A stretch of DNA of 64,000 nucleotides from an uncultured Azospirillum sp. (GTDB taxonomy: Bacteria > Pseudomonadota > Alphaproteobacteria > RF32 > CAG-239). Of this stretch, positions 24,148 through 58,283 are shown piece by piece. Both the position numbers and the translations under genes were made by a program. Every line of letters starts with the position of its first letter. Position 1 is the stretch's first letter. The notes below the pieces were generated by a model. That model searched no databases. It worked only from the letters and a program-made list of their open reading frames with translations, and had not been told where the DNA came from. Where the stretch lies: the NCBI GenBank assembly GCA_902489795.1, contig CABUBU010000004.1:817-64816 (forward strand), written 5' to 3'.

Positions 24148-24148
24148 A

Positions 24149-25489: not shown

Positions 25490-26795
25490 AACTTTTTCCG
25501 TCGGCGGCATTCATCCCGATAAGTTTAAGAACACCTCATATCTCCCGATCGAAGACGCCGGCATCCCCGAAACCGTATATGTACCGGTCAAGCAGCATAT
25601 CGGCGCACCGGCCAAAATTCTGGTCAAGAAAGGCGACCGGGTCAAAGTCGGCACCATGATTGCCGATGCCGACGGCATCGTTTCCGCCGACGTACACTCT
25701 CCCGTTTCCGGCGAAGTGATCAAAGTGGAAGAGGTAACCGGCGAAGTCGGTTATCTGGAAAAAATGATCACCATCAGGACCGAAGGCGACGAATGGGAAG
25801 AAACGATCGACCGCACCCCCGATCTGGTCAAGGACATCACCGCTTCGCCGGAAGAAATCGTCAGCATTATCCGCAACGCCGGCATTGTCGGCATGGGCGG
25901 CGCCGGTTATCCGACCCCAATCAAAGTTACCCTGCCGGCCGGCAAAAAAATCGATTGTATTATCCTAAACGGCATCGAATGCGAACCCTATCTGACCGCC
26001 GACGACCGCCTGATGCAGGAAAAGGCGGAACAGATCATCATCGGCGCCAAAATCTTAAACCGGGCGCTCGGCATCCAGAAAGCGGTAATCGCCATTGATG
26101 AAAACAAACCGGCGGCAATCGAAGTCATGCACAGGCTCACCCGCCGCTATGTCGGCGTCAACGTCGTCGTCTGCAAAACCAAATATCCGCAGGGCGCGGA
26201 GCGGCAGCTGATCGCCGCCGTCACCGGACGCGAAGTACCCCCCGGCTGCCTGCCGATCGACGTCAACTGTCTGGTGCAAAACGTCGGCACCGTTCATGCC
26301 GTATACGAGGCCGTACAAAAAAGAAAGCCGCTGTTTGAGCGCATTGTCACCGTCAGCGGTGACGATTTGCAAAGCCCCGGCAACTACCGCGTGCGTATCG
26401 GCACGCCGGCCTCCTATCTGATTGAAAAGGCCGGTCCGCTGGAAACGCCGGGCAAAATCATCTTCGGCGGACCGATGATGGGCGTAGCCGCCACCAACCT
26501 GTCGGCGCCGATAACCAAAACCACCTCGGGCATTCTGCTGTTAAAGGAAGGTTCCGTCTTCAATCCCGAACAAACCGCCTGCATCCGCTGCGGGCGCTGC
26601 ACGGAAGTCTGCCCGCAGGGGCTGGAGCCTTTTGCCATCACCGGTTTTGTCCGCCGGGGCGAATATCAGGAAGCCAAGAAAATTCACGTTCTCGACTGCA
26701 TCGAATGCGGCAGCTGTTCCTACATCTGCCCGGCCCGGATTCCGCTGACCGACTACTGCAAACTGGCAAAATACGAAATACGCAAAAAGAAATAG
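25476..26795 (+). CDS. rnfC: Rnf complex subunit C
   Basis: GIVGMGGAGYPT NADH/FMN motif, NGIECEPYLTADDRLM, two C-terminal 4Fe-4S motifs (CIRCGRCTEVCP, CIECGSCSYICP). ATG at 25476 overlaps the rnfB end. Confidence 0.9.
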   Translation: MSKIKTFSVGGIHPDKFKNTSYLPIEDAGIPETVYVPVKQHIGAPAKILVKKGDRVKVGTMIADADGIVSADVHSPVSGEVIKVEEVTGEVGYLEKMITIRTEGDEWEETIDRTPDLVKDITASPEEIVSIIRNAGIVGMGGAGYPTPIKVTLPAGKKIDCIILNGIECEPYLTADDRLMQEKAEQIIIGAKILNRALGIQKAVIAIDENKPAAIEVMHRLTRRYVGVNVVVCKTKYPQGAERQLIAAVTGREVPPGCLPIDVNCLVQNVGTVHAVYEAVQKRKPLFERIVTVSGDDLQSPGNYRVRIGTPASYLIEKAGPLETPGKIIFGGPMMGVAATNLSAPITKTTSGILLLKEGSVFNPEQTACIRCGRCTEVCPQGLEPFAITGFVRRGEYQEAKKIHVLDCIECGSCSYICPARIPLTDYCKLAKYEIRKKK

Positions 26796-38060: not shown

Positions 38061-38621
38061 TCAATCGGCTTTCGCTAATGCTTCTTTTTTCGCAAACCAG
38101 CGGTCGGACTTCTCCTTTGTGTTCACCGACCACAGCCAGACAAAACGTTCGGCAAACGCCGCCACCGCCAACCGGTCACTAAGAAAAATACAATTCTCAC
38201 TGTTTTTGACGGTAGCCGGTTCCGTCCAGTTATAGCTCCCCGTCACCGCCGTTCGTCCGTCAAATACCGCAAATTTGTTGTGCTCAATCTTATGTTTCGA
38301 GTGCACCCGGATATTAACCCCGGCCCGGTAAAGCTCCCACACCTTGGAACTTCTGCCGGCCGCCTGCAAACGGTCGGTCAGGATCCGCACTTTCACCCCG
38401 CGGCGGTCAGCCTCTTTCAAAGCCTCCACAATATCCACATTGTTCAGCGAATAGACGGCAACGTCAATTTTCCGGCGGCTGCCGTTGATCATCTTAACAA
38501 TGCTTTCCTCACAGGCATTTGAGGGCGAAAAATACACCTCAACACTCCCGGCCGGCTGAAAGCCCGCCGCCAGCACCGCCCCACAGAGAAAAACACAAAT
38601 AAGAATTGACAGCTTTCGCAT
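38061..38621 (-). CDS. secreted PLD-superfamily endonuclease (Nuc of pKM101-like)
   Basis: Signal peptide MRKLSILICVFLCGAVLAAG. Single HKD motif HNKFAVFDGRTAVTGSYNWT. ~185 aa mature size and KNSEN motif as in periplasmic Nuc. ATG at 38621. Confidence 0.75.
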   Translation of the reverse strand: MRKLSILICVFLCGAVLAAGFQPAGSVEVYFSPSNACEESIVKMINGSRRKIDVAVYSLNNVDIVEALKEADRRGVKVRILTDRLQAAGRSSKVWELYRAGVNIRVHSKHKIEHNKFAVFDGRTAVTGSYNWTEPATVKNSENCIFLSDRLAVAAFAERFVWLWSVNTKEKSDRWFAKKEALAKAD

Positions 38622-38725
38622 AATACAACCTTTCGATTGTATTTTTACACAAATAATACTTCTCGTCAACAACAAAGGGCTGCATTTTTACAAATACAGC
38701 CCTTTTGAATTGCAAACAATAATTA

Positions 38726-39382
38726 TCAGACAATCAAATTACTTTTTTTTAACCTCTCCTCCAATTCTAACATCAAATTTGTCCCGAAAAAGGCACGCCA
38801 GCTTCTCATCTTTTCAATAACTTGCGCTTCTTCTTCCGACAACTGATAATCCTTTCGGCTCCGGTTTTCTTCATCCAAAACCTTACGAACAGCATTTTTA
38901 TATATAGAACCAAAACTGTCTTCGCCGGCAGGCTTTATAGTTTTCCTGCCAACCGCCTTAACTTTACAGCCGGCCATTTCTTCACGAACAGCCACCGCTA
39001 CGCACTTCTTGACCATTTCACCAATCGCTTCCATGTCAACAGTTACCATTTTGGAAATAGTTCCATAACCTCCTGTCTTGCGAATTGAGGGAAGCACTTC
39101 ATGAGTAACCCATCTCTTAAACCTTTTGGCTTCCTGTTTACGGGAATCCAATGTAATATTATATAATCCAAATTCATTAACGATATTAGCCTTTCCCTGA
39201 CGACCTATTTTTAACATAGACCGCTCATCATCATCTAATTTTTGAACAGCCTGAGTTGTGTTTTTTATTTCTAAAACTTTACAAACATCACAGGCAACAA
39301 ACCAAGGCTCTCCGTCTAACAAAATTGTTCTTATTTGATTTTTGTTGAAATTAAAAACTGAAATTTCGGCACTGTTACTCAT
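38726..39382 (-). CDS. Bro-N domain protein (phage antirepressor-like)
   Basis: ISVFNFNKNQIRTILLDGEPWFVACDVCKVLEI ... NEFGLYNITLDSRKQEAKRFKRWVTHEVLPSIRKTGGY is a classic Bro-N pattern. ATG at 39382. Confidence 0.75.
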   Translation of the reverse strand: MSNSAEISVFNFNKNQIRTILLDGEPWFVACDVCKVLEIKNTTQAVQKLDDDERSMLKIGRQGKANIVNEFGLYNITLDSRKQEAKRFKRWVTHEVLPSIRKTGGYGTISKMVTVDMEAIGEMVKKCVAVAVREEMAGCKVKAVGRKTIKPAGEDSFGSIYKNAVRKVLDEENRSRKDYQLSEEEAQVIEKMRSWRAFFGTNLMLELEERLKKSNLIV

Positions 39383-39494
39383 GGTGACTGCCCTCCAACA
39401 GTTCAACCACTTCCTTCAATTTGGCCAGCACAAAATTCAAGGTGCTTTTCAGCGCCTCGTTTTCAACTTCCAACTCTTTATTTGATTTTTCCAT
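39375..39494 (-). CDS. 39-aa coiled-coil peptide
   Basis: Hand-translated MEKSNKELEVENEALKSTLNFVLAKLKEVVELLEGSHHE. The stop overlaps the Bro-N start. Confidence 0.3.
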   Translation of the reverse strand: MEKSNKELEVENEALKSTLNFVLAKLKEVVELLEGSHHE

Positions 39495-40305: not shown

Positions 40306-43300
40306 TTATTCATCCTCAAAGTCCCGCAAGGCATACGGCGACCAGCCGAGCCACAGCATAATTTCCTTGCCCGGTTCTCCGGCTTTGGCATAATCGCCGA
40401 AATTGTTGACAACGTCCTGCACATATTTCAGCGGCAGCCCCGTCAATTCACCCAAGGTCTTAACCGCTTTCAGCACATCTTCCGCTTCCAAATCCTCATC
40501 GGCAAATTTCAATACCATATTTTTAAAGTCTTCCAAACTTCCCCAAAACGGCACCAATTCCCGCACCGACATTCTGGCTTGATACATTCCGCCCTGGCCG
40601 GTCAGTGTATTATAAACATTTTCCAACACTTTATTTATAAGGAACCATCCGTTTAATGATCCCAGCGCGGCCGCCCTCATCTGGCTGTCGTCATCCCAGC
40701 GAAAACTGTCAGCGACAAACTGGAAAAACATCGGCAACAAAAAATGATAGATAAACAGCATTTTCGCAACCTGTTTTTTGCTCATCCGTCCGCTCAACAA
40801 TCCGTTAACAGCCATTATTTCTTTGCGTAGATACTGGTTTTGCGAACTCGTAAACATTGTAAACGCCCGCCACATCGCGTTGCTTTGCATATAGCTCTGC
40901 TGGCTCAGGCGGCCGGATTGCTGCGTTTCGTCCGTCACCCTCTCAAATGTATCCAAGGCCTTTTGCTTTGCCTCAGTTTCACTCATCCCCGCTTTCAGGT
41001 TCTTTTTCAGTTCCGATTTATAAAGCGCCCAACCGCCCATATAAATCGCACCACGGTCACCAAACTTAATATTAGCCATCAAAAAATCATTCCATTTGAA
41101 TTTACCTTTGGCTTTTTTCATATTCTTAAACATTTCCGATTTTGACATCACTTCAAAATCGCGAATAATATTGACATCCCGGCTTTTCATCAGGGTTGTG
41201 TTGCCCAAAATCTCCATAGCTTCCTTGGGATGAAGGAAGAAATCGGCAACGCCTTTGATAAAATCAGTTGTCGATACATTCTCCCAATAAGCCGGAAATG
41301 ATGTTAATTGCTTAATGGCCAGCGCCGGCTTCAAACCCAGCACGGATTTGGCATACCGCGCCCGCACCTTGGACAAAGCGCTCCAAACATCTTTCTTTTC
41401 CCCGTTGTTGGCAAAGTTCCCAATCTCATAGCGGATTCTCTCATTCATCTTTGCGCCGAAAACATTATCGATAATCGCCTTGATCTTTTTATCGCCAAAA
41501 ACGGCGTTAATATCCAGCAAGGCATCGGCAAACCCCATATAATGGTTAAGATCCTGCACATATTTATGCAAAGCGGCAAAGGCTCCTCGAAAGTTGATGG
41601 TTGCGCTGCCAGCCTGCGCCACACGCTGCTTGGCGCCCGAAAAGCTGGCATAAGCTCTTGGTGTTCCGTCATCAACATTCACACCGTTTCTGGTCATCGA
41701 GCGCGGCGAGTAAAACTTATTATGTGTCAGGCTGATGCCAAAATGATCTTCATAAAATTGGTTAAACCGCTCATAGTTTTCATTATAGAACTCAAACAAA
41801 GCCTTTGCTACCGCAATATCATCCTCCGTCAGTTCCTCATTCACCCGCCGCAAAAACTCCTCGTTATACTGGTTGATCGGATCTGCTGCCATAATTTCCC
41901 GAGTATCTTTGTCTTGTGCTTTCATATAAACATCAATTAACTGATCTTTGCTGAACTCCTTGCGCATCAAAATCGGCCTAACCGGAAGTCCGCGCTTGCC
42001 GATGTTCTCGTTACCAACCCATTCGATCATTGTTTTCTGATCAAGTTCTTTGTCCATATAACGGCTAACGCTGATAGCCTTGTTGGCGCTTCCTTTTAAT
42101 GCGTTCATCAGCTTTTCCGAAACATTGTCGCCATCTTTGATAATCCCGGCATACATTTTCTGCTCGGCGTTGAATATGTCCATATTCTGGCTGAGCTTGC
42201 TGTTGGAGCTTTTAGAAGCTTTATCGTTTCGCGACAAAACATCCATCAGCCCGCCCCACGAAAGCTGTCCACGTTCCGCACCTCCAAGCATTTTCCACGC
42301 CTTGTCTTTCCAGCCTTTTTTCTCATCCCGCCAGTTAATTCGGCCGCCGCCGGTCAAAACTTCTTCGGCTTCGGCAATCAGTCGCGCTTTTCTCTCCTTT
42401 CTGATTTCTCCGGTTATCATTGCGGACAAACGACCTGCATTGTAGCTGTCAGACAACCCTTCATAAACTTCCAAAAGCGCCCGGTCGCTTATTTTTCCGG
42501 TTGCCAGACCCAGCAGTTTGTTTTCAAAGACAAGCTTTTCAACATCAATATCGCCGCCTTCGCGCATAAATTCTTCAATCAGTTTGGCGTTTTCCTGCTG
42601 CTGTTCTTTGGCCGCATCCTTGTCCATCGCCACCAGTTCACGGAAACGGTCAAAAGCGTCGTTCAATTTTTTGTCCGGGAAACGTCCGACCAACTTGCCG
42701 TTTTGCGTCCGCGGCTTTGTCCAAGTCAAAAGTCTCTCTATCCTTGAGCGCATATTTTCTCGGTCAAAAACCAGATTTTCAAGCTGACGGCGATACAAAT
42801 TATAATCATATTCACTCAATTTCTCTTTGTTAATATTTGGCGATACAGCAAAATCTTTCAGCTTTTGCTTAAAATCCACAGCGCTGACTTCATTGCTTTT
42901 CATTTGCTCAATCAGGCTTTGCATTTCCGCCTTGCTGATTTTGCCTTCATGCAGCAGTTCCATCGCTTTATTAATGTCCCAGTTAGAAATAAAACCGCGT
43001 TGCAGGCGGTTTTCCATATTTACTGTACTCTGCTGCATGGCAAAATCAATTTTTCTGCCGCCCAGCATATCATCAAAGGTTTTGCGAATCTCATCATCTA
43101 ATTTAACATACTCCAAGCGTTTAACTTCATTATAAAGATTACGCAGCCAACTCTTAAAACGACGAAACACTTTTTTCAAAAGCGCATTAGGCGAACGCCC
43201 TTCCAGCAAATAAGCTTCAAAGGAATCGGCAAAATACTCATGCTGCTCTCTTGTCAGATTTCCATCCGTTGAACCGACATAACGATATATTGCCTGCAAC

Positions 43301-46300
43301 TGTGCCGCCGTTTCCGGGTTATCGGCAAAACGCCGCATATCGTCCAAAAAGAAATGCCCCAACTCATGAACGACGGTTGAGGCATCGGCGGTTTGAAAAA
43401 GTTTTATAATTGCTTCCCCGGTATCCGGTCGCCGGGTAAAACTCCCTCGCGGATTATCTTCTCCCTGCCCCCGCACCGGCGTAACCTCAAGGTTCAGCTC
43501 TCCGTCACTCGGCATTCCCAACTGATAAAACTTGTCAATTACCTGTATATCGTCAGGATTAAAGATCACAAAACACCGTCCGTCTTGCTCTCCGACATAG
43601 GTTATGCCTTTAATTCCATATTTTTCCAGTAACTGAGAGGAGGCTTTGTCCGAGCCTAAAATATTTGATATTTTCCGATAAACATCTCGACCGGTTATTT
43701 TTTGTAAACTAGAACCAGCGGCAAATTTTGCCGTAAAACCATACTTTTCAACAATTTTTTCTTCCAGATTTTTTAGCTTTTCTTTCACAAAATCGCTTTG
43801 TTCACTGAAAGTTTTTTGTTCATCAAGCAAATACGGATTTTCAGGTATATCAACCTCGTGCACTTGCCCCTTAGGTAATTTCGACAAATCAGAATCTTTA
43901 ATTTCCTGAATAGCCTTTTTAACATTTTCACTGTTATATCTGTAATCAAGATTAGAGAAGAAATCCTTTGTTGCTTGATTTTCGCTGATTATATCGGAAT
44001 ATAATGCTGGGTATTCCTCTATCTTATTTTCAATTTCATCGATTTGTTTTATTTTTTCTTTTTTCTCCTGTCTAATTTTATCCAGCTCTGCATCAGCGCC
44101 TTCCTTTTTGTATCCCCATTCATCATAATAGCTATCACTTTTTTTATCTAAATTTCTTATTTCGTCTTGAATAGCATAAATTTCAGAATAGAGATTTGTA
44201 CGTTCCTTTTGAATGTCTAATATGTTATTCAGCTTTTTTATAAAAAAGTCTTTTCCCTTTTCATTAACAGCCAAAAGTCTCATATATTCACCATTAGACA
44301 TGTCTGCCGGTTTCGATTCTGCTATGAATTTCTTACGATAATGTTCTGCAACATCTTTATCCAAAGCATAATAAAGCCCCCAGCCGTGCGACTGCGCTCC
44401 TTCACCAGTACCGATTGCCTCCAAACTCGGCCGGTCATAATCAACACGGCTGCCGGCATACGCTATCTGATACAAAGTATCATTGACATTGCCCGCATTT
44501 TGTGTTACATTATCATTATAAGCGGTTTCCGCTTTAAGGCTCTCCGAGAGCCCGCCTTGTACGGCGGTGTCTATGGAGGTACTAAGCCCCTTATCCCCCG
44601 GATTTGTAGCCGGATCGGTGCGAGGGGCTTTTTCATTTACCTGTGCATCCCAAAAGAAATTGCCGTTGTTGTCTTCCTTAACCGTTAAATGGACATTATA
44701 AGTATCATTGTCAATGTTTATCGGCAAATCAGCCTTCCAATAAGCGACAATATTACTTTCCGTTTCCGGGGTATAGGTATTTTCACTGACAAAATTTGCC
44801 CTTTCCAACAATTCGGGAACATAAGGAACGATCAACCTTTTGTTTTTGTCGGCAAAAAAGCTCTTATATTTTTTGATTGACGAAGTCCTGATTTCAATCT
44901 CACCGTTTAAGGACTGATTAAAAATTTTCTTCCCTTTGAACGACTTTAAGATTTCCAGCATCTTGAGCTTGTAATCATCTTCGGAAAGCCCACCCATCTC
45001 TTCCCGAGAATCAATAGTCAGTTTTACATCGTTCCCATTAGCAACAACCTGCCCTTGATAATAAATGTTGTCGGACGCCGGATCAAACGTCCCGCGGTTA
45101 TAAACGGATTTTATCTGGTTGGGATTAAAGACGATATAGTCGGTTGAACGAACATTTGATATATCAACAGTATCATTCACATCTTTTATGATAACTCCAT
45201 CATATCCATTCCTTTTGGCGTATTCTGCCCATTCCTCTGTCGAACGTGCTTTTTCTCCTTTTACTTTGGCAAGATTAACATACCCCTCCGGATCTTCTTT
45301 TGCGTTTTCTGTATAATATTCTTTCGCCTCTTCAAAACTATCGAAACCAAGTGTCACCAAATATTTTATATCATCATCAGTCAATTCGGAATATTTCTTT
45401 TTGTTACCTTCCGCATTATATATTTTTTCGAAAGACTGCCCATAGGCGTCAATGACAAGAGGATTCCTCATCAACAGATAGACCTGCATAGGATTTTTAG
45501 AACCATAAGCACCCGCTACATCAATGCTATCCGAAAAGAAGTAACGCTTTCCCTTAAAAACATCAAACTCCGCGCTCGTCCCATGAAACCCCTCAACCAC
45601 AACAGGTTTTCCGGTCTGAAAATCATAATTTCGGGCGGCCGAAGGTGCAACAACATCAACGCTGCCGCTCCACCGCTTAAATTCCGGCGTGTCAATATCC
45701 GCTTTGCCATCAACACCGTATGCTTTTTGAGGTAATTGATACAAAGTATCGTTGACATTATTGTCCAGAACTGATATAATATCAGACATACTCCGACTAG
45801 AGAGCAGTCCCTTTTGGGTAGTGGATGCCGTTTGCATCGCTCTAGCGGAGTTATTTTTTATCCAGTTGTCAATATTAGCGTCCGTATCTTTAAAAGCCGT
45901 TGTAACAATATTGCGCCCGCTTTTCATATGCTCAAAAACAACGCCGTACTTTCCATTGGGAGTAGCCACTTTCATCAATACAGATTGTCCATCAAATCTT
46001 TTTTTGGAGGAAAGTGCCGCGCTTTCAATATTATCTATATTTGAAGCGACTTCTGTCCATTCTTTAGCTGTCAACGAGTGTTTTTTATCGTGTAAAACCG
46101 TATCTCGAGGAATATCAAAATTAACCCCACTGTTTGATAAATTGGCAAAATATCTTGCGCTTGTATCTTCTGGATTGTTAAAAATATCATTAACAAAATT
46201 CTCTAAAGTATCAAACTTACTTTTATACATTGACTGTTCAAAGTTTCCGTTTCCTTCTCTTTCTGCCAGATAAACGGCGCTTCCTTGTTCGCCGTCTTCA

Positions 46301-48228
46301 ATACGCAACTGCCAGCGCTCCAAAATATCCGCTGCCGATTTTCCTTCGTTGACTGCCAACGTTACCGCTCGCGCCGCAATAATTCTAGCGTCTGCATCCG
46401 CTTCCGCATTTGGACGTCCTGCCGCCGTCAGCTGCTCGTAAAAGTTTTGATAAACTTCGTTATACTGGTTTCTGGCATCAATCATCGGCGCAACAATCTT
46501 AACCCATTGGTCAATTTGTTCGTCCGTCACACCAAAACGCTCTTTCATCACCTGCCGGCTCACCTCTGAGATACTCCGGGCATCTATTCCTTCCGGCATC
46601 GTGTCCGGATCTTTTTCCTTGTTCAAGAGCTGATTCAGTTCATCCATGACCGGCACGCTTTCCTGCAAAAACGTTTCCTGCAGCAAATCTGCCGTTGTTT
46701 GCGCCGTCTGATCGTCAATGCCCGGGTTATAAGCTTTCACCTGGTCTTTTATCTGCCGGTTCCAGTTTCTCATACGATGGTTGTAAAGCATAGTGCCGCC
46801 CGCGCCAAAGCCTGCACCCGTAATACCCCCAACAAAACCAGAAAACATCCCGTCCGCCCAGATATCCGCCTGCGACTTATCCTGCCAGCCGATGGCATTT
46901 CGGTATTCGTCCCCCAGCACGTTCTGTACGGTTTCCTCAAACGGCCCTTCAGTCAAAAAACCTTTTGCCGCTGCCTTAAAAACCGAGGACTGGCGGGCTA
47001 CGTTTTTAACCGCTGTTTTAACCGGCGCCGCCACCGCTCGGTTGTTCAGGATTTTTTCAACCGATCCGACAAAGGCGTTTTTCAATACCTTGGAAGCCGG
47101 AGCCGTTCCCACTTTGGCAATCCCCATCATAATGAAATCGCCGATTCCTTCCAAAGCTCCGTCAAAAGCTCCCAGAATGTCAGAATGCAGATCCGCCGTG
47201 TCAAAATCCTCTCCTTGTGCCATTGCCTCTTGAAAAGCTTCGCTTTTGGACGAATCAAAATAAGCTTTGCTGATCATACCGGCCGCTACATACGGATTTT
47301 TAGTTGCCAGCGTTATCGCCATGGAAGCTGCGATAGACGTCGCGCTATTGCCGATCCCATACATAACGTTCTGAAAATCTTTTTTGCCGCGCATTTCCTC
47401 GGGCATCAGCCCCAAACTGATTTTGTTGATAGTTTCAACGTTATGCTGCCGCCATTTGTCATACAAAGCCACCGCTTTTTGGTTCAACTCCTGCGCATTT
47501 TTCTGCGCGGCATTGAGCGCTTTGTCAGACACCGGTTGATCAAACCTGCCGCCATACATCAGAGAAACCGGGTTTTCCGCCATTTCCCGAGATACCCGGC
47601 TTTCTCTGGTTTCTCTCATTTCATCGGCAATATAAGTCGCTTCGCCGGCTGCCCTTCCGGCTTCGACCACATCATCGGGCAAAAAAAGCTCCGCTAAGCC
47701 CAAACGCGGCATCGATGAGGATGCCTCGTTTTTCCCTTTTTCGGCTCTCTCCTTCATTCGAAAATAATCAAACAACAGATCCGTTTCCCCTCTGGCAATG
47801 CTCCCGGCAATGTCCAGCGCTCCGGCCGCGGCAGATTTCGGCGCCTGTTTAGCCTCACCAACCGTTTCTCTTGCTTTTTCTTTGGCATAATCAAGCGCCA
47901 ACTGCCCGCCAAACAACAAAATTTTACCCAAGAAATTATCTTTGTTTATCTTTTCTGCCTGCGTATGGATGGCAAAGCGGGTGTCGGTTTCATCCATCGT
48001 TGCCGGCACCGAATAAACTTTGTTGGTGTCCGCATCCAGCGTTGTATAACTGGGAATATTGACCGGCACCCATTCGATTACTTCATCATCAACAACTTCT
48101 TCTTCAGCAACAGGAATATTAACCGGCACCCATTCGATTACTTCATCATCAACAACGTTGGTTGACCGTTCACTTCCGCGCAAAACCGCCAATTCATTGT
48201 CAATATTCTGTATCAATTCCTCATCCAT
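40306..48228 (-). CDS. giant (2640 aa) internal-virion/ejection protein at the T7 gp16 position; polyvalent multi-domain protein
   Basis: Follows the gp13/14/15-like genes. Contains FHGTSAEFDVFKGKRYFFSDSIDVAGAY...GYDGVII...VFNPNQIKS (ART-like), IGTGEGAQSHGWGLYYA (second, H-less copy), VLHDKKHSLTAKEW...VVFEHMKSGRNIVTTAF (barnase/EndoU-type nuclease-like), and VVHELGHFF...EYFADSFEAYLLEG (HExxH zincin). Confidence 0.75.
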   Translation of the reverse strand: MDEELIQNIDNELAVLRGSERSTNVVDDEVIEWVPVNIPVAEEEVVDDEVIEWVPVNIPSYTTLDADTNKVYSVPATMDETDTRFAIHTQAEKINKDNFLGKILLFGGQLALDYAKEKARETVGEAKQAPKSAAAGALDIAGSIARGETDLLFDYFRMKERAEKGKNEASSSMPRLGLAELFLPDDVVEAGRAAGEATYIADEMRETRESRVSREMAENPVSLMYGGRFDQPVSDKALNAAQKNAQELNQKAVALYDKWRQHNVETINKISLGLMPEEMRGKKDFQNVMYGIGNSATSIAASMAITLATKNPYVAAGMISKAYFDSSKSEAFQEAMAQGEDFDTADLHSDILGAFDGALEGIGDFIMMGIAKVGTAPASKVLKNAFVGSVEKILNNRAVAAPVKTAVKNVARQSSVFKAAAKGFLTEGPFEETVQNVLGDEYRNAIGWQDKSQADIWADGMFSGFVGGITGAGFGAGGTMLYNHRMRNWNRQIKDQVKAYNPGIDDQTAQTTADLLQETFLQESVPVMDELNQLLNKEKDPDTMPEGIDARSISEVSRQVMKERFGVTDEQIDQWVKIVAPMIDARNQYNEVYQNFYEQLTAAGRPNAEADADARIIAARAVTLAVNEGKSAADILERWQLRIEDGEQGSAVYLAEREGNGNFEQSMYKSKFDTLENFVNDIFNNPEDTSARYFANLSNSGVNFDIPRDTVLHDKKHSLTAKEWTEVASNIDNIESAALSSKKRFDGQSVLMKVATPNGKYGVVFEHMKSGRNIVTTAFKDTDANIDNWIKNNSARAMQTASTTQKGLLSSRSMSDIISVLDNNVNDTLYQLPQKAYGVDGKADIDTPEFKRWSGSVDVVAPSAARNYDFQTGKPVVVEGFHGTSAEFDVFKGKRYFFSDSIDVAGAYGSKNPMQVYLLMRNPLVIDAYGQSFEKIYNAEGNKKKYSELTDDDIKYLVTLGFDSFEEAKEYYTENAKEDPEGYVNLAKVKGEKARSTEEWAEYAKRNGYDGVIIKDVNDTVDISNVRSTDYIVFNPNQIKSVYNRGTFDPASDNIYYQGQVVANGNDVKLTIDSREEMGGLSEDDYKLKMLEILKSFKGKKIFNQSLNGEIEIRTSSIKKYKSFFADKNKRLIVPYVPELLERANFVSENTYTPETESNIVAYWKADLPINIDNDTYNVHLTVKEDNNGNFFWDAQVNEKAPRTDPATNPGDKGLSTSIDTAVQGGLSESLKAETAYNDNVTQNAGNVNDTLYQIAYAGSRVDYDRPSLEAIGTGEGAQSHGWGLYYALDKDVAEHYRKKFIAESKPADMSNGEYMRLLAVNEKGKDFFIKKLNNILDIQKERTNLYSEIYAIQDEIRNLDKKSDSYYDEWGYKKEGADAELDKIRQEKKEKIKQIDEIENKIEEYPALYSDIISENQATKDFFSNLDYRYNSENVKKAIQEIKDSDLSKLPKGQVHEVDIPENPYLLDEQKTFSEQSDFVKEKLKNLEEKIVEKYGFTAKFAAGSSLQKITGRDVYRKISNILGSDKASSQLLEKYGIKGITYVGEQDGRCFVIFNPDDIQVIDKFYQLGMPSDGELNLEVTPVRGQGEDNPRGSFTRRPDTGEAIIKLFQTADASTVVHELGHFFLDDMRRFADNPETAAQLQAIYRYVGSTDGNLTREQHEYFADSFEAYLLEGRSPNALLKKVFRRFKSWLRNLYNEVKRLEYVKLDDEIRKTFDDMLGGRKIDFAMQQSTVNMENRLQRGFISNWDINKAMELLHEGKISKAEMQSLIEQMKSNEVSAVDFKQKLKDFAVSPNINKEKLSEYDYNLYRRQLENLVFDRENMRSRIERLLTWTKPRTQNGKLVGRFPDKKLNDAFDRFRELVAMDKDAAKEQQQENAKLIEEFMREGGDIDVEKLVFENKLLGLATGKISDRALLEVYEGLSDSYNAGRLSAMITGEIRKERKARLIAEAEEVLTGGGRINWRDEKKGWKDKAWKMLGGAERGQLSWGGLMDVLSRNDKASKSSNSKLSQNMDIFNAEQKMYAGIIKDGDNVSEKLMNALKGSANKAISVSRYMDKELDQKTMIEWVGNENIGKRGLPVRPILMRKEFSKDQLIDVYMKAQDKDTREIMAADPINQYNEEFLRRVNEELTEDDIAVAKALFEFYNENYERFNQFYEDHFGISLTHNKFYSPRSMTRNGVNVDDGTPRAYASFSGAKQRVAQAGSATINFRGAFAALHKYVQDLNHYMGFADALLDINAVFGDKKIKAIIDNVFGAKMNERIRYEIGNFANNGEKKDVWSALSKVRARYAKSVLGLKPALAIKQLTSFPAYWENVSTTDFIKGVADFFLHPKEAMEILGNTTLMKSRDVNIIRDFEVMSKSEMFKNMKKAKGKFKWNDFLMANIKFGDRGAIYMGGWALYKSELKKNLKAGMSETEAKQKALDTFERVTDETQQSGRLSQQSYMQSNAMWRAFTMFTSSQNQYLRKEIMAVNGLLSGRMSKKQVAKMLFIYHFLLPMFFQFVADSFRWDDDSQMRAAALGSLNGWFLINKVLENVYNTLTGQGGMYQARMSVRELVPFWGSLEDFKNMVLKFADEDLEAEDVLKAVKTLGELTGLPLKYVQDVVNNFGDYAKAGEPGKEIMLWLGWSPYALRDFEDE
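48055..48156 (-). repeat. in-frame tandem duplication near the 5' end of the giant gene
   Basis: AATATT(G/A)ACCGGCACCCATTCGATTACTTCATCATCAACAAC occurs twice, 60 nt apart, encoding VVDDEVIEWVPVNIP twice. Confidence 0.85.
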
Positions 48229-50654: not shown

Positions 50655-51167
50655 TTATTCTCCCCACAGCCACGAAAATTTTTTCTGTCCTTCCTTATCT
50701 ACCGGCTGGCTGGCATTATATGCCGCGGCAATGCCGTTCGCCGCCCCTGAAAGCAAACTCATCCGAAACGCGTTCTTCCCCTGCTTTTTGGCCTGTTTGG
50801 CATAAAAATTCATATCGCTTGCCTGCTGCATGTAGTTTCTGGCCGCCGTCTCCGTCTGATAACGGATGTTAAGCGCGTTTTGTTCGGCGTTGGCCGCATC
50901 TTGCGCCAGAGAACCGATCACGGTTGCGCTGTCGGCAATTCCCATTTCCCCCATCAAAGCCCTTGTTTTTGACAACTGCTGCCGGTTCTCGGCCCGCTGT
51001 ATGTCTTCGTTAAGCGCTCCCTCCAAACGCACCTGCCGGGCGTTTCGTCGCAAAATATCGGCGTTGGCGTTATAAGCCTCGGCTTTAGCCTTTCCCTGCC
51101 GATAAGCCTGATAACCGCCGATAACGGTTTGAGCCGCCGCCAAACCGCCCATTACTCCCGCACTCAT
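50655..51167 (-). CDS. internal virion protein, T7 gp14-position (170 aa)
   Basis: Small, Ala/Gln-rich with a hydrophobic N-terminus MSAGVMGGLAAAQTVIGG. Assignment is by position. Confidence 0.45.
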   Translation of the reverse strand: MSAGVMGGLAAAQTVIGGYQAYRQGKAKAEAYNANADILRRNARQVRLEGALNEDIQRAENRQQLSKTRALMGEMGIADSATVIGSLAQDAANAEQNALNIRYQTETAARNYMQQASDMNFYAKQAKKQGKNAFRMSLLSGAANGIAAAYNASQPVDKEGQKKFSWLWGE

Positions 51168-51877: not shown

Positions 51878-53971
51878 TTATGCCGAACTTTGCATACTCG
51901 GTACAATCGCCTGGATCAGCATCGGATAAACGCTTTTGTTTTGGATAATAATGTTTGCCCCGCGGTCTTTCAACAAAGAAGTACCGTCAGGCCACGGAAT
52001 AACCACATTGCCGGTAAACAGGCGAACTTCGCCCGCTGCCAATTCTTTGCCGCTATGATATAAAATATCCTGCTGCCGGTCATAGGCCGGCCCCGCCGTC
52101 CCGCCGCCGGAACGGTAAACCATCAGCGTCAGGTGATCAATCCGCTGAACACAGGACATCCCCATGCCTCTGTCCGACTGAAGATATATCTTTTGCGGCT
52201 GAAGCACCGAACTGATCGGCAGCCCGACCACCACCCGCGCGTCCGTTTCCTTAATCTCGATCGAACCATCATCGGCCACAATCTGATGCGGGCGCTCCAG
52301 TCCGTTGGCCGAAATCGCCACTTCGCAGCCTTTCAGATGATCAAGCCCGGAGAGCTTTGTCGTCACATCACCGACCGGCCGGTTGTAAATCAGGCCGCTG
52401 TCAACAAAAAAGCCGGAATCGCGAATATAATCCAACTCTGCTTTCTCTCTTTCAACCGGATCACGAATATATTCCACGTCGTCCGGGTAGTCGGAACGGG
52501 TCCCATTGTCAATCCATTCCGCATATCGTTTCATCACGCTGCCGATTTTACGCTTAACGATCACCCATACGTCATCGCGGCGTTCATCATTTGAGGGAAT
52601 TACCGCCACCGCCTCGACCGAACCCGACAAATCATGTTGCGCCAAGGCCGCCACCTGCTGCTGGGCGTCGAAGGTAAAAGACACCAGACGCCCGTCGGCC
52701 ATTACCAGCCACAACAGTTTGTCCGGCACGTCCTGCCAGTCCCAGCTGACAATACCCGACGACAACAGATGTTTGCCCAAGAGCGAGGCGTCAAGCGGAT
52801 CATAACCGTCGCGTTCGTAACTGTAAACCAGATCGCGGATTGACGTGCCGAAACGGTCGACAAACAAAATATGCCCACCCACCGCTATCGGCTGGATCGG
52901 CTTGCTGCCGATACCTGAAATCTGACGGATCGCCACATTGTCCGCGGCCAAAGCTTCGCCGTTGGAAATCGCGTCGATATAAAACTCTCCGCTTGAGGTG
53001 CCGACAAACAGAACGTCGCCGCCCGCAATCCAGCGTCCCTGATTGTACTCCTTTGAGTTAACCGGCACCGTAACCGCGCATTCCGCCGTCACTTCGCCAA
53101 ATTCCTGATCGGCGAAATTGTTGAAATCACCGGAATAAGACCCGCAGGCTTTCAAACCGTCGGCGGCATCAATCAGTAACCAGAACCGGTTTTTATAAGA
53201 ACAGCCCGACAACGGACAATTCCGCCCGGGATAAATCATGCCAAATTCAAAATGCGAGGTTACCAGCGCCTTCGGCATTTCAATAATCACTTCGGCCTTG
53301 ACCTCGGTCGCCGAAACGTATTCGGTGATTTTGGCGGTACCATAGCCGGCATGCAGATATTTCCACGTCACTTTCCCGTCGGAACGGCTGCCTTCCGTGT
53401 GCACCGGCTTCACGTTGCCGGTGGTACCTTCATTCAAGGCTTCGTAATATTTACCGTCCGACGTCCACACCGCTCCCTTGCTGACACTCTCCTCGACCTG
53501 CCATGCCGTCGTGTCATCATTGACCAGCGTCAGACGGATCAGACGTCCGACGTCGTCTTCAGCGAACAAATTTGCATCTGCCGTCAAACTGATGGTTCCG
53601 GTCGTTCCGCTTGCGGTGATTTTTATATCTTCGGTGTTAACGTGATTCCACGGGCCGTTTAAGAGTTCCCAGTCCTCCAGCCGCCAGTCGTCGTTGGCAT
53701 AACGCGTCAGCTTTTTCATATATTTCGGGTGAAAAATATAAAGCACGTCGCCAATTTGCGCAAATTGCAAATTGTAGCATTCAAGCTCATCGTTCCAAAT
53801 GTCTTCAAGCGTATACGGGCTCTCCAGTTCATAAACTGCATCGTCTTTCAAAACTTGGCCGTGGTTGGCAAACAGCCGGATGTATTTGTCGCCGAACTCA
53901 AGCATAAAACCGGCGTTGCCGGCAAACTTAAACTTGATCAGATCGGCTCTTTTGCTTGTTTTCTCCGCCAT
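51878..53971 (-). CDS. tail tubular protein B / nozzle (T7 gp12-like) lacking the canonical N-terminal ~55 aa
   Basis: Starts MAEKTSKRADLIKFKFAGNAGFMLEFGDKYIRLF (the 'rLipFeFs..qaYilEFgd.yiRfy' segment of the family). C-terminal SGLDHLKGCEVAISANG...VVVGLPISSVLQPQKIY...RLFTGNVVIPWPDG is family-typical. The ATG lies 1 nt after the upstream stop. Confidence 0.65.
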   Translation of the reverse strand: MAEKTSKRADLIKFKFAGNAGFMLEFGDKYIRLFANHGQVLKDDAVYELESPYTLEDIWNDELECYNLQFAQIGDVLYIFHPKYMKKLTRYANDDWRLEDWELLNGPWNHVNTEDIKITASGTTGTISLTADANLFAEDDVGRLIRLTLVNDDTTAWQVEESVSKGAVWTSDGKYYEALNEGTTGNVKPVHTEGSRSDGKVTWKYLHAGYGTAKITEYVSATEVKAEVIIEMPKALVTSHFEFGMIYPGRNCPLSGCSYKNRFWLLIDAADGLKACGSYSGDFNNFADQEFGEVTAECAVTVPVNSKEYNQGRWIAGGDVLFVGTSSGEFYIDAISNGEALAADNVAIRQISGIGSKPIQPIAVGGHILFVDRFGTSIRDLVYSYERDGYDPLDASLLGKHLLSSGIVSWDWQDVPDKLLWLVMADGRLVSFTFDAQQQVAALAQHDLSGSVEAVAVIPSNDERRDDVWVIVKRKIGSVMKRYAEWIDNGTRSDYPDDVEYIRDPVEREKAELDYIRDSGFFVDSGLIYNRPVGDVTTKLSGLDHLKGCEVAISANGLERPHQIVADDGSIEIKETDARVVVGLPISSVLQPQKIYLQSDRGMGMSCVQRIDHLTLMVYRSGGGTAGPAYDRQQDILYHSGKELAAGEVRLFTGNVVIPWPDGTSLLKDRGANIIIQNKSVYPMLIQAIVPSMQSSA

Positions 53972-53972
53972 C

Positions 53973-55322
53973 CTAAACCTGCCCCAGATAAACAATCTTA
54001 ACATAACCGTTGGTACCGCCGGCACCGTTTTCGCCCAAATCTCCCGCCTTGCCGCCGGCGCCAAATCCGTTTTGCAAAAGCGAAGACGTCGACTCTTTCT
54101 TGCCCGCGGATTTAATGGTGGAAGAAACGATTTTCAAAGTGCCGACCTCCAGTTTGCCGCCGTCGCCGCCGCCTTCGGCATATGTTCCGGTACCGTGGCC
54201 GCCGCGGCCGCCCCACAGATCAATCAGGCTTTTTCCTTTGAAAGCCAAATAAGTCAGGCCGTTGACTTCCAGCGCGGAAGAATAACCCCACCACTCGCCT
54301 CTGGTCGCGTTACGCCCGCTGGCCCATCCGCCGCGGCCGCCTTCGCCGACTTTGATCGTGTAGTCCCCGGCATCAAACCAGACTTTGCCCATAAAGGCCG
54401 CACCGCTGCCACCATTGCCGCCGTACCACGCATGGGCACCGGCCGATCCGCCGCCACCGCCGCCGGCACCGCAACCAGACAAATGATAATAGCCGCTGAT
54501 TTTTACTTTCAGCTTATAAGTACCCGGTTTACTTTTCTCAAAAACGACTTCGTTTAAGGCATAACCGCTTTCATCCAAATCAACATATAAAACCGTCGAT
54601 CGCTCAATCGTCTGGCTGCCGCTTTGGGTTTTGTAGCCGGGCTTTGATACGGTCCAGGTAACCAAATCGCCCTTTTGAACTTCAATTTTGCTTTGCTCTG
54701 TGCCGTTGATGACAATTTTTGCCCCCGTTTCCGCCGTGCGGATTTCAAAACTCATTGCCAGTTTAACCGTAATTTCCGTATCAGCATTAACCTGAACACT
54801 GCCGGTCTTTGTATCATAGCCGTCTTTTGCAACCTCGAACGAAGCCGTCGCGCCGCGGGTGACCACCGCCGGATTTTGCCGCAAACTGTTGATGAAGACG
54901 TCCGCGTCTTCGGGAACCGACACAACCGTCAGCGTGGCCCGGTAGAGCGTGGATACCAGAGAGATGTTCAGCGTCGTGTCTTCCTCGACGATATAAGTGC
55001 CGCTCACCGGATAATAACCGTCAAGTTTAACGGAATAGCTCACCTTCTCACCCGGCGCCACATAAAGTTCGTCGGCAATCTCGTTGTTGATGTAAACGAT
55101 TGCCTCAGAGGGCTCAACCACAATCTTAAACAAAACCGCGTCCACTTCCTTGACCGGCGCCACAAAATGCGACCCGCCGCGGCGCTTCACCCCGCCTTCC
55201 ACTAAAGGAATAAAATTCAGCATTTTGGCCGCCGAGTAATTATATTTAGGCAAATCGATCCGCCCCTCCAGCCACGGACTGATCTCGCCGCCGTTGAATT
55301 GATTTAAGACCGGTTTTACCAT
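53973..55322 (-). CDS. fusion protein: nozzle-family N-terminal segment + three PEGA-like repeats + glycine-rich fibre-type domain
   Basis: N-terminus MVKPVLNQFNGGEISPWLEGRIDLPKYNYSAAKMLNFIPLVEGGVKRRGGSHFV equals the canonical nozzle-family start. Then EPSEAIVYINN / VPEDADVFINS / ETGAKIVINGT PEGA-like units, then GCGAGGGGGGSAGAHAWYGGNGGSG... The ATG at 55322 overlaps the upstream stop (ATGGTAA). Confidence 0.6.
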   Translation of the reverse strand: MVKPVLNQFNGGEISPWLEGRIDLPKYNYSAAKMLNFIPLVEGGVKRRGGSHFVAPVKEVDAVLFKIVVEPSEAIVYINNEIADELYVAPGEKVSYSVKLDGYYPVSGTYIVEEDTTLNISLVSTLYRATLTVVSVPEDADVFINSLRQNPAVVTRGATASFEVAKDGYDTKTGSVQVNADTEITVKLAMSFEIRTAETGAKIVINGTEQSKIEVQKGDLVTWTVSKPGYKTQSGSQTIERSTVLYVDLDESGYALNEVVFEKSKPGTYKLKVKISGYYHLSGCGAGGGGGGSAGAHAWYGGNGGSGAAFMGKVWFDAGDYTIKVGEGGRGGWASGRNATRGEWWGYSSALEVNGLTYLAFKGKSLIDLWGGRGGHGTGTYAEGGGDGGKLEVGTLKIVSSTIKSAGKKESTSSLLQNGFGAGGKAGDLGENGAGGTNGYVKIVYLGQV

Positions 55323-55930
55323 TCGCCCGCACTCCACGTGTCACGGATGGTTACCCAGCTGTTGTCCGGCATCGTTTCCATATCACGCACAATCTCATTG
55401 TTAAGTCGCGCCTGCGTGATATAACTTTCAAACTCGGCCAGAAAAAGCTGCTTATAATCCGCGCCCTGCTTAATTCGCACGCTCATTTCGGCGGCAACCA
55501 GGGCAATCAGCGCTTCTTTGAAAAGCGGCGTGAAAAGCTTCGGATCGGAAACGTCGGCAATATAGGTGATGTTGATATTGCCGGGCTGTCGGCAAAGCAG
55601 CCGGTTGCCTTCGATCGAGTAACGGACGTCCGGGGCAACCACCACGTCGCTCACGTTCGGCATTTTATAAAACTCGCCGAAATCTTTTAAGACCAGATAA
55701 TCAGCCGGCAGGGCATAGGCGTAAGCAAACAGCGTCGACCCCGTTTCTTCGTCCAACTCCGCCAGACGTGCGCGTTTTAAGGCAAAACGCCAGTAGTGGG
55801 TTGAGAGCAGCATCTTACGCTGATCCTCATAAACATAACCCATCAATTCGCCATACGGGGTTTGCGAAAGCGACGTGATCGTTCCTTCGCCGATTTTGAT
55901 CAAAGCGCGATTGATTATCTCGATACTCAT
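55316..55930 (-). CDS. tail tubular protein A / adaptor (T7 gp11-like)
   Basis: MSIEIINRALIKIGEGTITSLSQ parallels T7 gp11 VNDILASIGEPPVSTLEG. Size ~200 aa and position before the nozzle gene. Confidence 0.55.
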   Translation of the reverse strand: MSIEIINRALIKIGEGTITSLSQTPYGELMGYVYEDQRKMLLSTHYWRFALKRARLAELDEETGSTLFAYAYALPADYLVLKDFGEFYKMPNVSDVVVAPDVRYSIEGNRLLCRQPGNINITYIADVSDPKLFTPLFKEALIALVAAEMSVRIKQGADYKQLFLAEFESYITQARLNNEIVRDMETMPDNSWVTIRDTWSAGEW

Positions 55931-56716: not shown

Positions 56717-57637
56717 TTAATCCAAAACCACCTTCGGCTCGTCACCTGCCATAAACTGATACGACGATACCATCGGAATACCGTTCCAACTGCCGATCAG
56801 GAAGTTTAAGCCCTGTTCGGTATTGCTCATGCGGATCATTTCCTTTTTGTAAGCCTCGCCCAGCCAGTTTAATACCCGCGGATGCATCATCATCCGGGTG
56901 TTACCCGGTTTGGCCTGCACCTGTAAAAGCGCTTCGTTAATCTGTCGGATCGTCGGCAGATTGCCTTCTGCAATGTTGACGATTGTCGCACAGGTCTTGG
57001 GATTCATCAGCTGCATACCGAAGTAGCCTTTAACCTGCGTTAAATAACCGGCAACGCCGTTTTCGTCGTGGCAGAGCTGGCCACCGTAAAGCGGCTGCAC
57101 ATCAAGCATAGCCCCCTGCTTAAATCCTTCCGGTGAATAAAGCCCGCAGCATTCATATGGAACTTGACGAACAATCACGATCGAATATAAATCGGCACTT
57201 CCCCCTGCTGTCTGAGCATTTCCGTTGTCAATCGCATACTGCCGGTAGTTCCTGTAAATAATGTGTTTTTCCGTCTGCATGCCGGCTTCTGCCAAAATGC
57301 CCGGCATCTGTTTGGCAAGATATTTTGCCAGTCCGCCGAAAGCCACCGCCTTATCCTGCTGTACAAAAATCTCGCCGCCCATAATATCGAGATCAACTTG
57401 TTCCAGTTTGGAACCGGTTGACATTTTTGGCAGAGGCGAATTCAGTTTCACAAAACCGGCGCCGTTGATTTCGGTTTTTTTCTCCGCTACATTCCACAAC
57501 GGATGGGAAGACTGCTCAAATTTGATGCCCGCCAAAATCGGCGTTTCTTCCAACAGATAATTAATCTGATGCGGTTGTTTTTTAGCATATTCGACCGACA
57601 GCTCCTGTAAAGTTGCCGGCCTGTCAATATTAGCCAT
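56717..57637 (-). CDS. major capsid protein (306 aa)
   Basis: Position after the scaffold and size are consistent. The family was not verifiable by eye. Confidence 0.6.
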   Translation of the reverse strand: MANIDRPATLQELSVEYAKKQPHQINYLLEETPILAGIKFEQSSHPLWNVAEKKTEINGAGFVKLNSPLPKMSTGSKLEQVDLDIMGGEIFVQQDKAVAFGGLAKYLAKQMPGILAEAGMQTEKHIIYRNYRQYAIDNGNAQTAGGSADLYSIVIVRQVPYECCGLYSPEGFKQGAMLDVQPLYGGQLCHDENGVAGYLTQVKGYFGMQLMNPKTCATIVNIAEGNLPTIRQINEALLQVQAKPGNTRMMMHPRVLNWLGEAYKKEMIRMSNTEQGLNFLIGSWNGIPMVSSYQFMAGDEPKVVLD

Positions 57638-58283
57638 TTCTCATTCCTTTCGCTTTTTCAAAAATTTCGGTTAAATAATCGACGGTCGACATTGCCTCGT
57701 CTTTCAAAGCCCCGCCGCCGCTCAGGCCTTTGGCCGTGTCTTCACTCAAAGCGTTTCCGAGCTTCAAACAAAGATCCATAAAGTTCCTGGTGCCGATTGC
57801 CGCTTCCATTGCACCGACCGCCTCTTCACCAAGACCAAGAACCGCCGCACCCCGGCGCGCCAGTTCCTGATTTTTTGCCAGCCCGTCGCCCTGCGCCTGC
57901 TGCCAGGCTTCCATCTCGGCTTTGGACCGTTCGTTCCACATTTTTGCCTGTTCTTCCTGCATGTCGTCCCAGGCCTTGACTAAACCGGCCGCCGCCTTCC
58001 GGCTCAGCCCGTTGTCAAAAAAAGCCTTTTGCATGGTGGCTGCAAAAGGCTTGTCCGTTTCTCGAAAACTGATTTCATACTTGTCCGGCGCTTCCGGACG
58101 ACCCAAACGGGAATAAAGTTCGTTCCATTCCTCCGGCTTGTCTTCTGCCGGAATATAAAACTTGTCGGCCGGCGCTGCATTCTCTGCTTCGGCCTTATCA
58201 ACCGCCGGTTCGGCAGTGTTGCTTTCCGCCGTCGGCTCATCCGGCAGCGTGTCAATATCTTCGCTCATTCCTTTTCCTTTCAA
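57630..58283 (-). CDS. scaffolding protein
   Basis: Acidic, Ala/Glu-rich, helical, between the portal-side genes and the capsid gene. Confidence 0.55.
   Translation of the reverse strand: MKGKGMSEDIDTLPDEPTAESNTAEPAVDKAEAENAAPADKFYIPAEDKPEEWNELYSRLGRPEAPDKYEISFRETDKPFAATMQKAFFDNGLSRKAAAGLVKAWDDMQEEQAKMWNERSKAEMEAWQQAQGDGLAKNQELARRGAAVLGLGEEAVGAMEAAIGTRNFMDLCLKLGNALSEDTAKGLSGGGALKDEAMSTVDYLTEIFEKAKGMRNG

Follow-up and report, generated by a model that had tools for sequence, protein, structure and literature searches.

A 2,640-residue protein in the internal virion protein slot of a human-gut prophage: domain architecture and cassette mosaic

Introduction

A 64,000-nt stretch of contig CABUBU010000004.1 from an uncultured Azospirillum sp. 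(GenBank assembly GCA_902489795.1, positions 817 to 64,816; hereafter the window) carries a prophage with an unusually long gene, a 2,640-codon open reading frame (ORF) on the minus strand. The ORF begins with ATG and overlaps by one base the stop codon of the 807-codon ORF upstream. A first-pass annotation, made from the sequence alone, placed this gene in the slot of the ejected internal virion protein (IVP) gp16, and described its product as about twice the size of T7 gp16, which is correct because T7 gp16 has 1,318 aa. It further proposed that the protein lacks a transglycosylase motif and instead strings together enzyme-like modules, comprising two copies of an ADP-ribosyltransferase (ART), a nuclease and a zincin, that would enter the host cell with the phage DNA. 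The question raised by this locus is whether one protein combines the ejection role of the slot with a set of effectors.

Iyer et al. 2017 (PMC5512222) defined polyvalent proteins, in which ARTs are the commonest protein-modifying enzymes and metallopeptidases the commonest domain, and proposed that these proteins are packaged, injected and autoprocessed, a proposal restated in PMC9503650. We report that the window protein is, with good confidence, an ejection protein of the Bbp10 family from an epsilon15/BPP-1-type prophage, in the slot of IVP-D (T7 gp16), and is built as a phage-type polyvalent protein. The ORF and all motifs quoted in the first-pass annotation are present in the sequence, at the positions that it gave. 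An identical 2,640-aa protein is encoded on three human-gut metagenome contigs, the longest of 78,978 bp.

Gene order and homology to Bbp10

Reading the minus strand from 61.8 kb, the prophage genes are arranged in the order large terminase, portal, a 217-aa protease-like protein, capsid, tail tubular protein A, tail tubular protein B, a 135-aa ORF, a gp14-like gene, the 807-aa gene, the 2,640-aa gene and then small genes, beyond which lie a gene for a discoidin-domain protein, probably the fiber, and a cell-wall hydrolase gene. The major capsid protein is of the epsilon15 gp7 type (NCBIfam NF045672, E 9e-29), and the gp14-like protein matched phrog_418 (E 6e-18) and epsilon15 gp14 (BLAST E 5e-5). 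This layout is that of an epsilon15/BPP-1-type podovirus, and the giant gene occupies the position of bbp10 in BPP-1 and of gp16 and gp17 in epsilon15.

Homology to Bbp10 is not confined to promiscuous domains. An iterated profile of the last ~600 aa of the protein (in module G, see below) matched both Xanthomonas SAC gp23 and, with E 3e-136, Bbp10 aa 1441-2048. The HExxH...E domain (module F) is homologous to Bbp10 aa 768-932, and a tblastn match covering aa 1517-1732 had E 7e-16. Synteny agrees with this family assignment, as the gene follows the IVP-B gene and the IVP-C-slot gene in a prophage whose capsid is of the epsilon15 type and whose tail tube proteins are of the T7 type. Bbp10 is the IVP-D homolog of the epsilon15 group according to Hardies et al. 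2016 (PMC4819975), who established the IVP-D link with joined multi-group hidden Markov models, and we apply the gp16 label because of the synteny, the Bbp10 homology and this literature. The gp16 slot of the first-pass annotation is therefore borne out by gene order and homology to BPP-1 Bbp10; its podovirus assignment also stands, and the phage type is refined to an epsilon15/BPP-1-like prophage, which is not T7-like in the strict sense.

Domain architecture of the protein

The protein consists of a conserved N-terminus, exchangeable central cassettes (modules B-E), and a conserved block made up of the HExxH...E domain and the C-terminus (Table 1). It contains at least two domains of disparate activity, with ART-PolyVal and LPD3 above their curated cut-offs in addition to the HExxH...E domain and a MuF-C/PBECR-like domain. 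It is also located among virion genes, having the gp14-like and gp15-slot genes on one side and tail-fiber-type genes on the other. Both features are those of phage polyvalent proteins.

Table 1. Modules and junctions of the 2,640-aa protein and the neighboring genes discussed in the text (coordinates refer to the window).
Feature	Residues or length	Coordinates	Strand	Basis or remark
Whole gene, probable Bbp10-family internal virion (IVP-D slot) polyvalent protein	2,640 aa	40306..48228	minus	ORF list and translation
Module A, conserved N-terminal backbone	aa 1-664	46237..48228	minus	Common to relatives P0001-P0017, 23-86% identity
Module B, MuF-C/PBECR-like (BECR-fold RNase-like), moderate confidence	aa ~665-825	45754..46236	minus	Predicted-structure and sub-threshold Pfam matches
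Junction 1, NDTLYQ	aa 826-831	45736..45753	minus	Separates module B from the ART cassette in every close relative
Module C, ART-PolyVal ADP-ribosyltransferase	aa 872-1044	45097..45615	minus	Pfam PF18760
Junction 2, DNIYYQ	aa 1053-1058	45055..45072	minus	Recurrent break-point
Module D, LPD3	aa 1085-1192	44653..44976	minus	Pfam PF18798, E 8.7e-18, 65 bits (cut-off 27)
Junction 3, NDTLYQ	aa 1249-1254	44467..44484	minus	DNA identical to junction 1 at 22/23 nt
Module E, second divergent ART-like domain	aa 1255-1564	43537..44466	minus	hhalign against module C profile
Junction 4, DKFYQ	aa 1565-1569	43522..43536	minus	Alignments restart nearby
Module F core, HExxH...E metallopeptidase-like	aa ~1595-1700	43129..43446	minus	H1621, E1622, H1625, E1664
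Module G, conserved C-terminal backbone (~900 aa)	aa 1760-2640	40306..42951	minus	In 72/99 relatives
807-aa protein, gp15 (IVP-C) slot, upstream	807 aa	48228..50651	minus	Synteny only
gp14-like internal virion protein (IVP-B), upstream		50655..51167	minus	PF24072 T7_gp14, 27.2 bits (cut-off 27)
ORF between portal and capsid	217 aa	57630-58283	minus	Epsilon15 gp6 protease BLAST E 9e-4; phrog_458 'protease' E 1e-6

A phmmer search of the whole protein against PDB sequences and an NCBIfam scan each returned no match. No SLT (lytic transglycosylase) or lysozyme family was detected by Pfam at E ≤ 1 in the whole 2,640-aa protein or at E ≤ 10 in its segments, in agreement with the absence of a transglycosylase motif claimed earlier. 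The first-pass annotation had named profile searches as the check on its three predicted folds; in Pfam the ART exceeded the cut-off, the nuclease remained sub-threshold, and the zincin had no family match. It had overlooked the LPD3 module, junctions DNIYYQ and DKFYQ, and the ~310-aa length of the second ART-like domain.

Module C matched PF18760 with E 2.3e-14 and 54.8 bits against a curated cut-off of 31.2. The motifs by which it had been recognized are FHGTSAEF... (aa 881-901, 45526-45588), GYDGVII (aa 1008-1014) and NPNQIKS (aa 1035-1041). Residues H882, Y917 and D1010 occupy family-invariant columns, and we tentatively place them on strands 1, 2 and 5, respectively, in agreement with the H-Y-D configuration of ARTs defined by Iyer et al. 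(PMC5512222). To judge from these residues, module C is apparently an active H-Y-D ADP-ribosyltransferase. PF18760 is carried by 27 of the 99 relatives of the window protein. Module D, which follows, represents a one-cassette insertion relative to P0001-P0004, with an exact indel at residues 1059-1248.

ORFs of the crAss-like gut phages NC_055901 (cr130_1), NC_055869 (cr55_1) and NC_055873 (cr1_1) match the ART/LPD3 part of the protein (27-33% identity, E 6e-6 to 3e-5), so these cassettes are in circulation across unrelated lineages of gut phages.

Module E aligned with the module C family in a profile-profile comparison (hhalign probability 96.4%, E 1.3e-9, 158 columns), and its N-terminal part alone aligned with the ART profile at 90% (E 1.5e-6). 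This strongly supports the second, His-replaced ART copy of the first-pass annotation, which was recognized by YAGS (aa 1257-1260) and IGTGEGAQSHGWGLYYA (aa 1272-1288, 44365-44415). The domain contains an insert, a coiled coil of ~130 aa. Its family consensus opens with A-[WY]-H-G-S; at the position of the strand-5 Asp of module C, this family has Lys or Arg. In the window protein all three H-Y-D positions are substituted, with A1258 replacing His (YAGS in place of yHGS), His replacing Tyr and Lys replacing Asp. Because Ala, His and Lys occupy its three catalytic positions, module E is probably not an active ART.

Module B corresponds to the segment previously likened to barnase/EndoU/colicin-type nucleases, with VLHDKKHSLTAKEW at aa 711-724 and VVFEHMKSGRNIVTTAF at aa 763-779. 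A word-indexed homolog search with module B alone found only 2 matches, and an exhaustive search was needed; this profile search of a representative library recovered 253 clusters at E ≤ 1e-3, among both giant and short proteins. Near-invariant across these sequences are two His (H718 and H722), a Trp and an aromatic residue, together with a GRN..TAF motif. The AlphaFold2 model shows helices followed by a four-strand meander, with a predicted local distance difference test (pLDDT) score of 80-90 in the core. Foldseek against BFVD, whose targets are predicted viral structures named from UniProt, matched three entries with probability of at least 0.99 each: one named 'Nuclease' (E 5.7e-5), a minor capsid protein of the MuF type (E 8e-4), and one named 'Phage MuF C-terminal domain-containing protein' (E 1.4e-3). 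Against the PDB, Foldseek gave no match at E ≤ 1e-3, the best-probability and only suggestive match being the RelE-fold RNase BrnT (probability 0.90, E 0.04), and the module B profile had no match among PDB sequences.

In Pfam, the module B query reached E 0.12 with MuF_C, and no PBECR or MuF_C model exceeded its cut-off. When the corresponding stretch of 40 homologs was scanned, only MuF_C, PBECR3 and PBECR2 recurred, all sub-threshold (best among the 40 segments, MuF_C 8e-4 and PBECR3 5e-3, below the cut-offs), and the remaining matches were singletons. MuF-C is classed as a PBECR domain by Iyer et al. (PMC5512222). These lines of evidence converge, short of formal significance, on a divergent MuF-C/PBECR-like domain, an assignment we make with moderate confidence; the nuclease-like character proposed earlier holds at that same strength.

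Module F is the most conserved module, being found in 91/99 relatives, and 76 distinct homologs all have H1621, E1622, H1625 and E1664. These residues lie in the HELGH motif (aa 1621-1625, 43354-43368) and in EYFADSFEAYLLEG (aa 1664-1677), the zincin motif and downstream helix of the first-pass annotation. In the core of the AlphaFold2 model (pLDDT >90), three short strands precede the HExxH helix (52-69), which the Glu helix (96-112) follows, and the topology so predicted is the minimal zincin topology described in PMC5512222. Pfam returned ATLF, M78 and M66 at E 0.01-0.06 only, with no PF18818 match, PDB-sequence matches had E ≥ 0.04, and Foldseek against the PDB found nothing at E ≤ 1. Several zincins (anthrax lethal factor, M78, M66, FtsH, Spartan) are among these weak matches, alongside unrelated families with similar E-values. 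Lenart et al. 2013 (PMC3650047) assigned the homologous region of Bbp10, residues 700-1000, to a zincin family related to CLCA.

The backbone flanking these modules is of two kinds. Module A had no Pfam match and no known domain, and is common to close relatives only. Module G contains one hydrophobic segment, at aa 2487-2509 in a hydrophobicity scan. The DNA for module A includes a 44-nt repeat (98% identity, 60-nt spacing; window 48053-48156, DNA repeat D2), giving a 20-aa tandem duplication at aa 25-59 (VVDDEVIEWVPVNIP...).

Junction motifs and cassette mosaic

In BLAST comparison with the 99 relatives the protein proved to be mosaic, its sharp break-points lying near aa 832, 1058, 1249 and 1567-1593. 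Alignments to P0001-P0007, P0013, P0034 and P0037 stop exactly at residue 1058, while that to P0012 continues across it, and alignments to P0005, P0006, P0007, P0015 and P0016 restart at residues 1567-1593. Four motifs of the pattern '[ND]x1-3[ILF]-[YF]-Q' end at aa 831, 1058, 1254 and 1569, exactly at module boundaries. The two NDTLYQ copies had been noted in the first-pass annotation as a linker, and the DNA encoding NVNDTLYQ is indeed identical at 22/23 nt between them (DNA repeat D8, 44468-44490 and 45737-45759). In close relatives the cassettes are ~190-240 aa long and end in ...YYQ, ...LYQ or ...FYQ, and one junction may precede different cassettes.

A chance repeat was considered as an explanation of the motif and rejected, on the strength of a shuffle test and of enrichment at module starts. 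Between aa 560 and 1600, 5 motifs were seen against 0.72 expected, and none of 2,000 shuffles reached 5. Family-wide, 20% of module starts have the strict form of the motif within 12 aa, compared with 1.9% of random positions. In distant relatives the motif is weak or absent.

Four close relatives (P0008-P0011, 2,048 aa, from NCBI genomes with contigs up to 214 kb) have the same backbone as the window protein, with another ~200-aa cassette in place of the ART, no LPD3 and no Pfam-detectable cargo. They would make a natural 'cargo-swap' comparison set.

Comparison with known systems

The closest known counterpart is BPP-1 Bbp10 (2,052 aa, with relatives in Xanthomonas, Caulobacter and Pseudomonas podoviruses), a giant protein in the same slot with a homologous HExxH domain and C-terminal ~600 aa. 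Bbp10 has PBECR1 just upstream of its zincin, and the window protein likewise has a probable PBECR-type domain upstream of its putative zincin. The two differ in that Bbp10 has an N-terminal LPD22 and neither ART nor LPD3, whereas the window protein has both of the latter, and its N-terminal 660 aa have no sequence relationship to Bbp10. In addition, BPP-1 encodes a transglycosylase in the preceding gene, and none is detectable in the window prophage. A second counterpart is gp16 (2,986 aa) of the cultured podovirus Octadecabacter Antarctic BD virus 1 (OANV1), which contains ART-PolyVal (E 2.6e-15; 29% identical to the window ART) and an N-terminal LPD22, and which its authors labeled a lysin (PMC9239159). 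The OANV1 gene order of acetyltransferase, gp14, lysozyme gp15 and gp16 puts it in the same slot as the window gene. The names 'lysin' and 'crystallin' carried by homologs were rejected as a functional clue, the 'lysin' labels being annotation transfers without experiment.

Other systems share part of this design. IVPs can hold domains that are bound for the cytoplasm, among them the N4 virion RNA polymerase (PMC4819975). That protein, N4 gp50, is classed as an IVP-D homolog (PMC4819975); it is giant and ejected, and contains a cytoplasmic enzyme and an HExxH domain followed by a C-terminal encapsidation region (PMC4819975, PMC5512222), but its cargo is an RNA polymerase, unlike that of the window protein. 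T4 Alt is a head-packaged ADP-ribosyltransferase whose injection accompanies that of the DNA (PMC5512222, PMC9503650); it is, however, a separate ~70-kDa myovirus protein of the Alt/VIP2 ART family and no part of an ejection-conduit protein. T7 gp16 has the same gene position, and presumably the same role as the largest core and ejection protein, but it is half the size, has an N-terminal lytic transglycosylase, and showed no detectable sequence or profile similarity.

The polyvalent proteins described by Iyer et al. (PMC5512222) are alike in having H-Y-D ARTs, PBECR/MuF-C domains, zincin-like metallopeptidases, LPDs, predicted injection and possible autoprocessing. The window protein is the same in kind, and adds its domain order, the degenerate second ART-like domain and the junction motif. 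The novelty implied by the first-pass annotation was thus overstated, as IVP-D fusions and virion-embedded polyvalent effectors have been published (PMC4819975, PMC5512222, PMC9503650). Since the principle is already in the literature, current understanding is unchanged. Possibly the only new detail is the regular, junction-delimited cassette structure, and a discussion of junction motifs was not found in the parts of Iyer et al. 2017 (PMC5512222) that were consulted.

Proposed role and alternative explanations

On the favored reading, that of a Bbp10-family ejection protein built as a polyvalent protein, the protein would be packaged into the capsid core together with the gp14-like and 807-aa proteins, and expelled via the tail at infection. 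The backbone would help to form or traverse the envelope conduit, and the cassettes would arrive in the cytoplasm together with the leading DNA or ahead of it. Once inside, the ART is predicted to modify a host target and the RNase-like module to act on RNA, while the metallopeptidase may cut the chain into units. The locus presents a clean, well-delimited example of an effector array inside the ejection protein of a podovirus, in a prophage of a human-gut Gram-negative bacterium. Because close relatives differ by whole cassettes, it offers a convenient system for studying ART and RNase targets, peptidase processing and the role of the junctions.

Several points weigh against this reading. The loss of all three catalytic residues from module E means that at least one of the 'enzymes' is probably none; the assignment of module B is based on sub-threshold or predicted-structure matches; and the zincin call lacks both a Pfam family match and a PDB Foldseek match. 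No profile link to T7 gp16, epsilon15 gp17 or N4 gp50 could be reproduced, as hhalign gave <3% with single-sequence templates. In these comparisons, the C-terminal profile found no support (≤1.2%) from the single sequences of T7 gp15 and gp16, epsilon15 gp15, gp16 and gp17, and N4 gp50 and gp51, and the HExxH profile aligned its motif residues with the metallopeptidase region of N4 gp50 at a probability of 2.6%. Direct evidence that the window protein or Bbp10 is present in virions or ejected was not found, and the searchable literature yielded no proteomics of Bbp10.

The regularity of the junctions raises the alternative that the protein is a polyprotein, with putative '[ND]x1-4[ILVMFYT]-[YF]-Q' sites cut by the in-cis HExxH peptidase or by a prohead protease like epsilon15 gp6, so that the cassettes would act as free proteins and the junction DNA would double as cassette-exchange joints. 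The position of all four motifs at module boundaries and at the break-points of relatives, their excess over shuffled sequence and enrichment at module starts, and the near-identity of two junctions at the DNA level are consistent with it, as are the conservation of the peptidase above all other modules, the protease-like gene at 57630-58283, and the metallopeptidase autoprocessing proposed by Iyer et al. (PMC5512222). However, 'YQxA[YW]HGS' is the start of the domain itself in the second ART family (that of module E), and the junction motif may therefore be structural; it also fades in distant relatives, and the N4 virion RNA polymerase, although a metallopeptidase is present in it too, is packaged unprocessed (PMC5512222). 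We consider the polyprotein rather unlikely, and we would give a similarly low probability to its fullest form, in which the '..[YF]-Q' junctions would be in-cis metallopeptidase sites that release ~200-aa cassettes in the host and, at the same time, recombination joints for swaps among gut prophages. If this were true, the nucleotide-conserved junctions would be the joints by which related gut prophages exchange effector cassettes. The junction-delimited cassettes would become important should the junctions turn out to be sites of cleavage.

Two further alternatives concern what the modules do. They could be mainly structural, as decayed passengers or spacers that set core size or conduit length, with no effector enzymes in the host. 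In favor of this, the H, Y and D positions are lost from the second ART-like domain, the 2,048-aa relatives P0008-P0011 appear complete with no Pfam-detectable cargo, and the MuF-C domain of phage Mu is considered an inactive PBECR (PMC5512222). Against this, module C retains the family-invariant H, Y and D, the His residues of module B are near-invariant across 253 clusters, HExxH...E is invariant, and whole cassettes turn over among close relatives, as is typical of arms-race effectors and not of spacers; we regard a mainly structural role as quite improbable. Still less probable, in our judgment, is that the HExxH domain is an envelope-breaching peptidase, acting on peptidoglycan or lipoproteins in place of the missing transglycosylase, and not a processing protease. 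An SLT or lysozyme domain was found in neither the 2,640-aa nor the 807-aa protein, and database names of homologs include 'lysin' and 'lysis protein', but these 'lysin' names were transferred without experiment and the weak matches of module F are protein-cleaving zincins (anthrax lethal factor, FtsH, Spartan). Moreover, BPP-1 carries both an SLT (Bbp11) and the same zincin (Bbp10), and the zincin is therefore no substitute for an SLT. The Bbp10-family ejection protein with polyvalent cassettes accordingly remains the reading we prefer.

Neighboring genes and prophage boundary

Chromosomal DNA makes up the left 30 kb of the window, with the prophage edge near 29.5-31.3 kb. This flank (2909-12296 and 20773-26795) encodes an AcrB-type RND pump, a membrane transporter, DsbD, ApbE and RnfC, as well as a family III CoA-transferase adjoining a thiamine pyrophosphate enzyme, a pair resembling frc/oxc of oxalate degradation. 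From these genes it follows that the element is a prophage in a Gram-negative gut bacterium, one that may be Oxalobacter-like.

Upstream of the giant gene, the 807-aa protein had no Pfam, PHROG or NCBIfam domain, and no transglycosylase was detected in it, unlike Bbp11 of BPP-1 and gp15 of epsilon15, which occupy the corresponding slot. The 217-aa ORF is a candidate prohead protease on the basis of its weak resemblance to known proteases, and internal proteins might be among its substrates as well. The gene for tail tubular protein B appears split or remodeled (51878-55337, minus strand). An ORF of 449-454 aa (53973-55337) begins with ~75 aa that match the N-terminus of phrog_376 (tail tube B), followed by PEGA and three head-fiber dimeric domains, and the ORF at 51878-54064 covers the remainder of phrog_376 (positions 60-709). 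Between the giant gene and the fiber-type genes (38061-39406, minus strand) lie a Bro-N gene (38726-39382) and a gene for a phospholipase D-family nuclease-like protein (PLDc_2, 38061-38621), which may be morons or accessory (anti-)defense genes.

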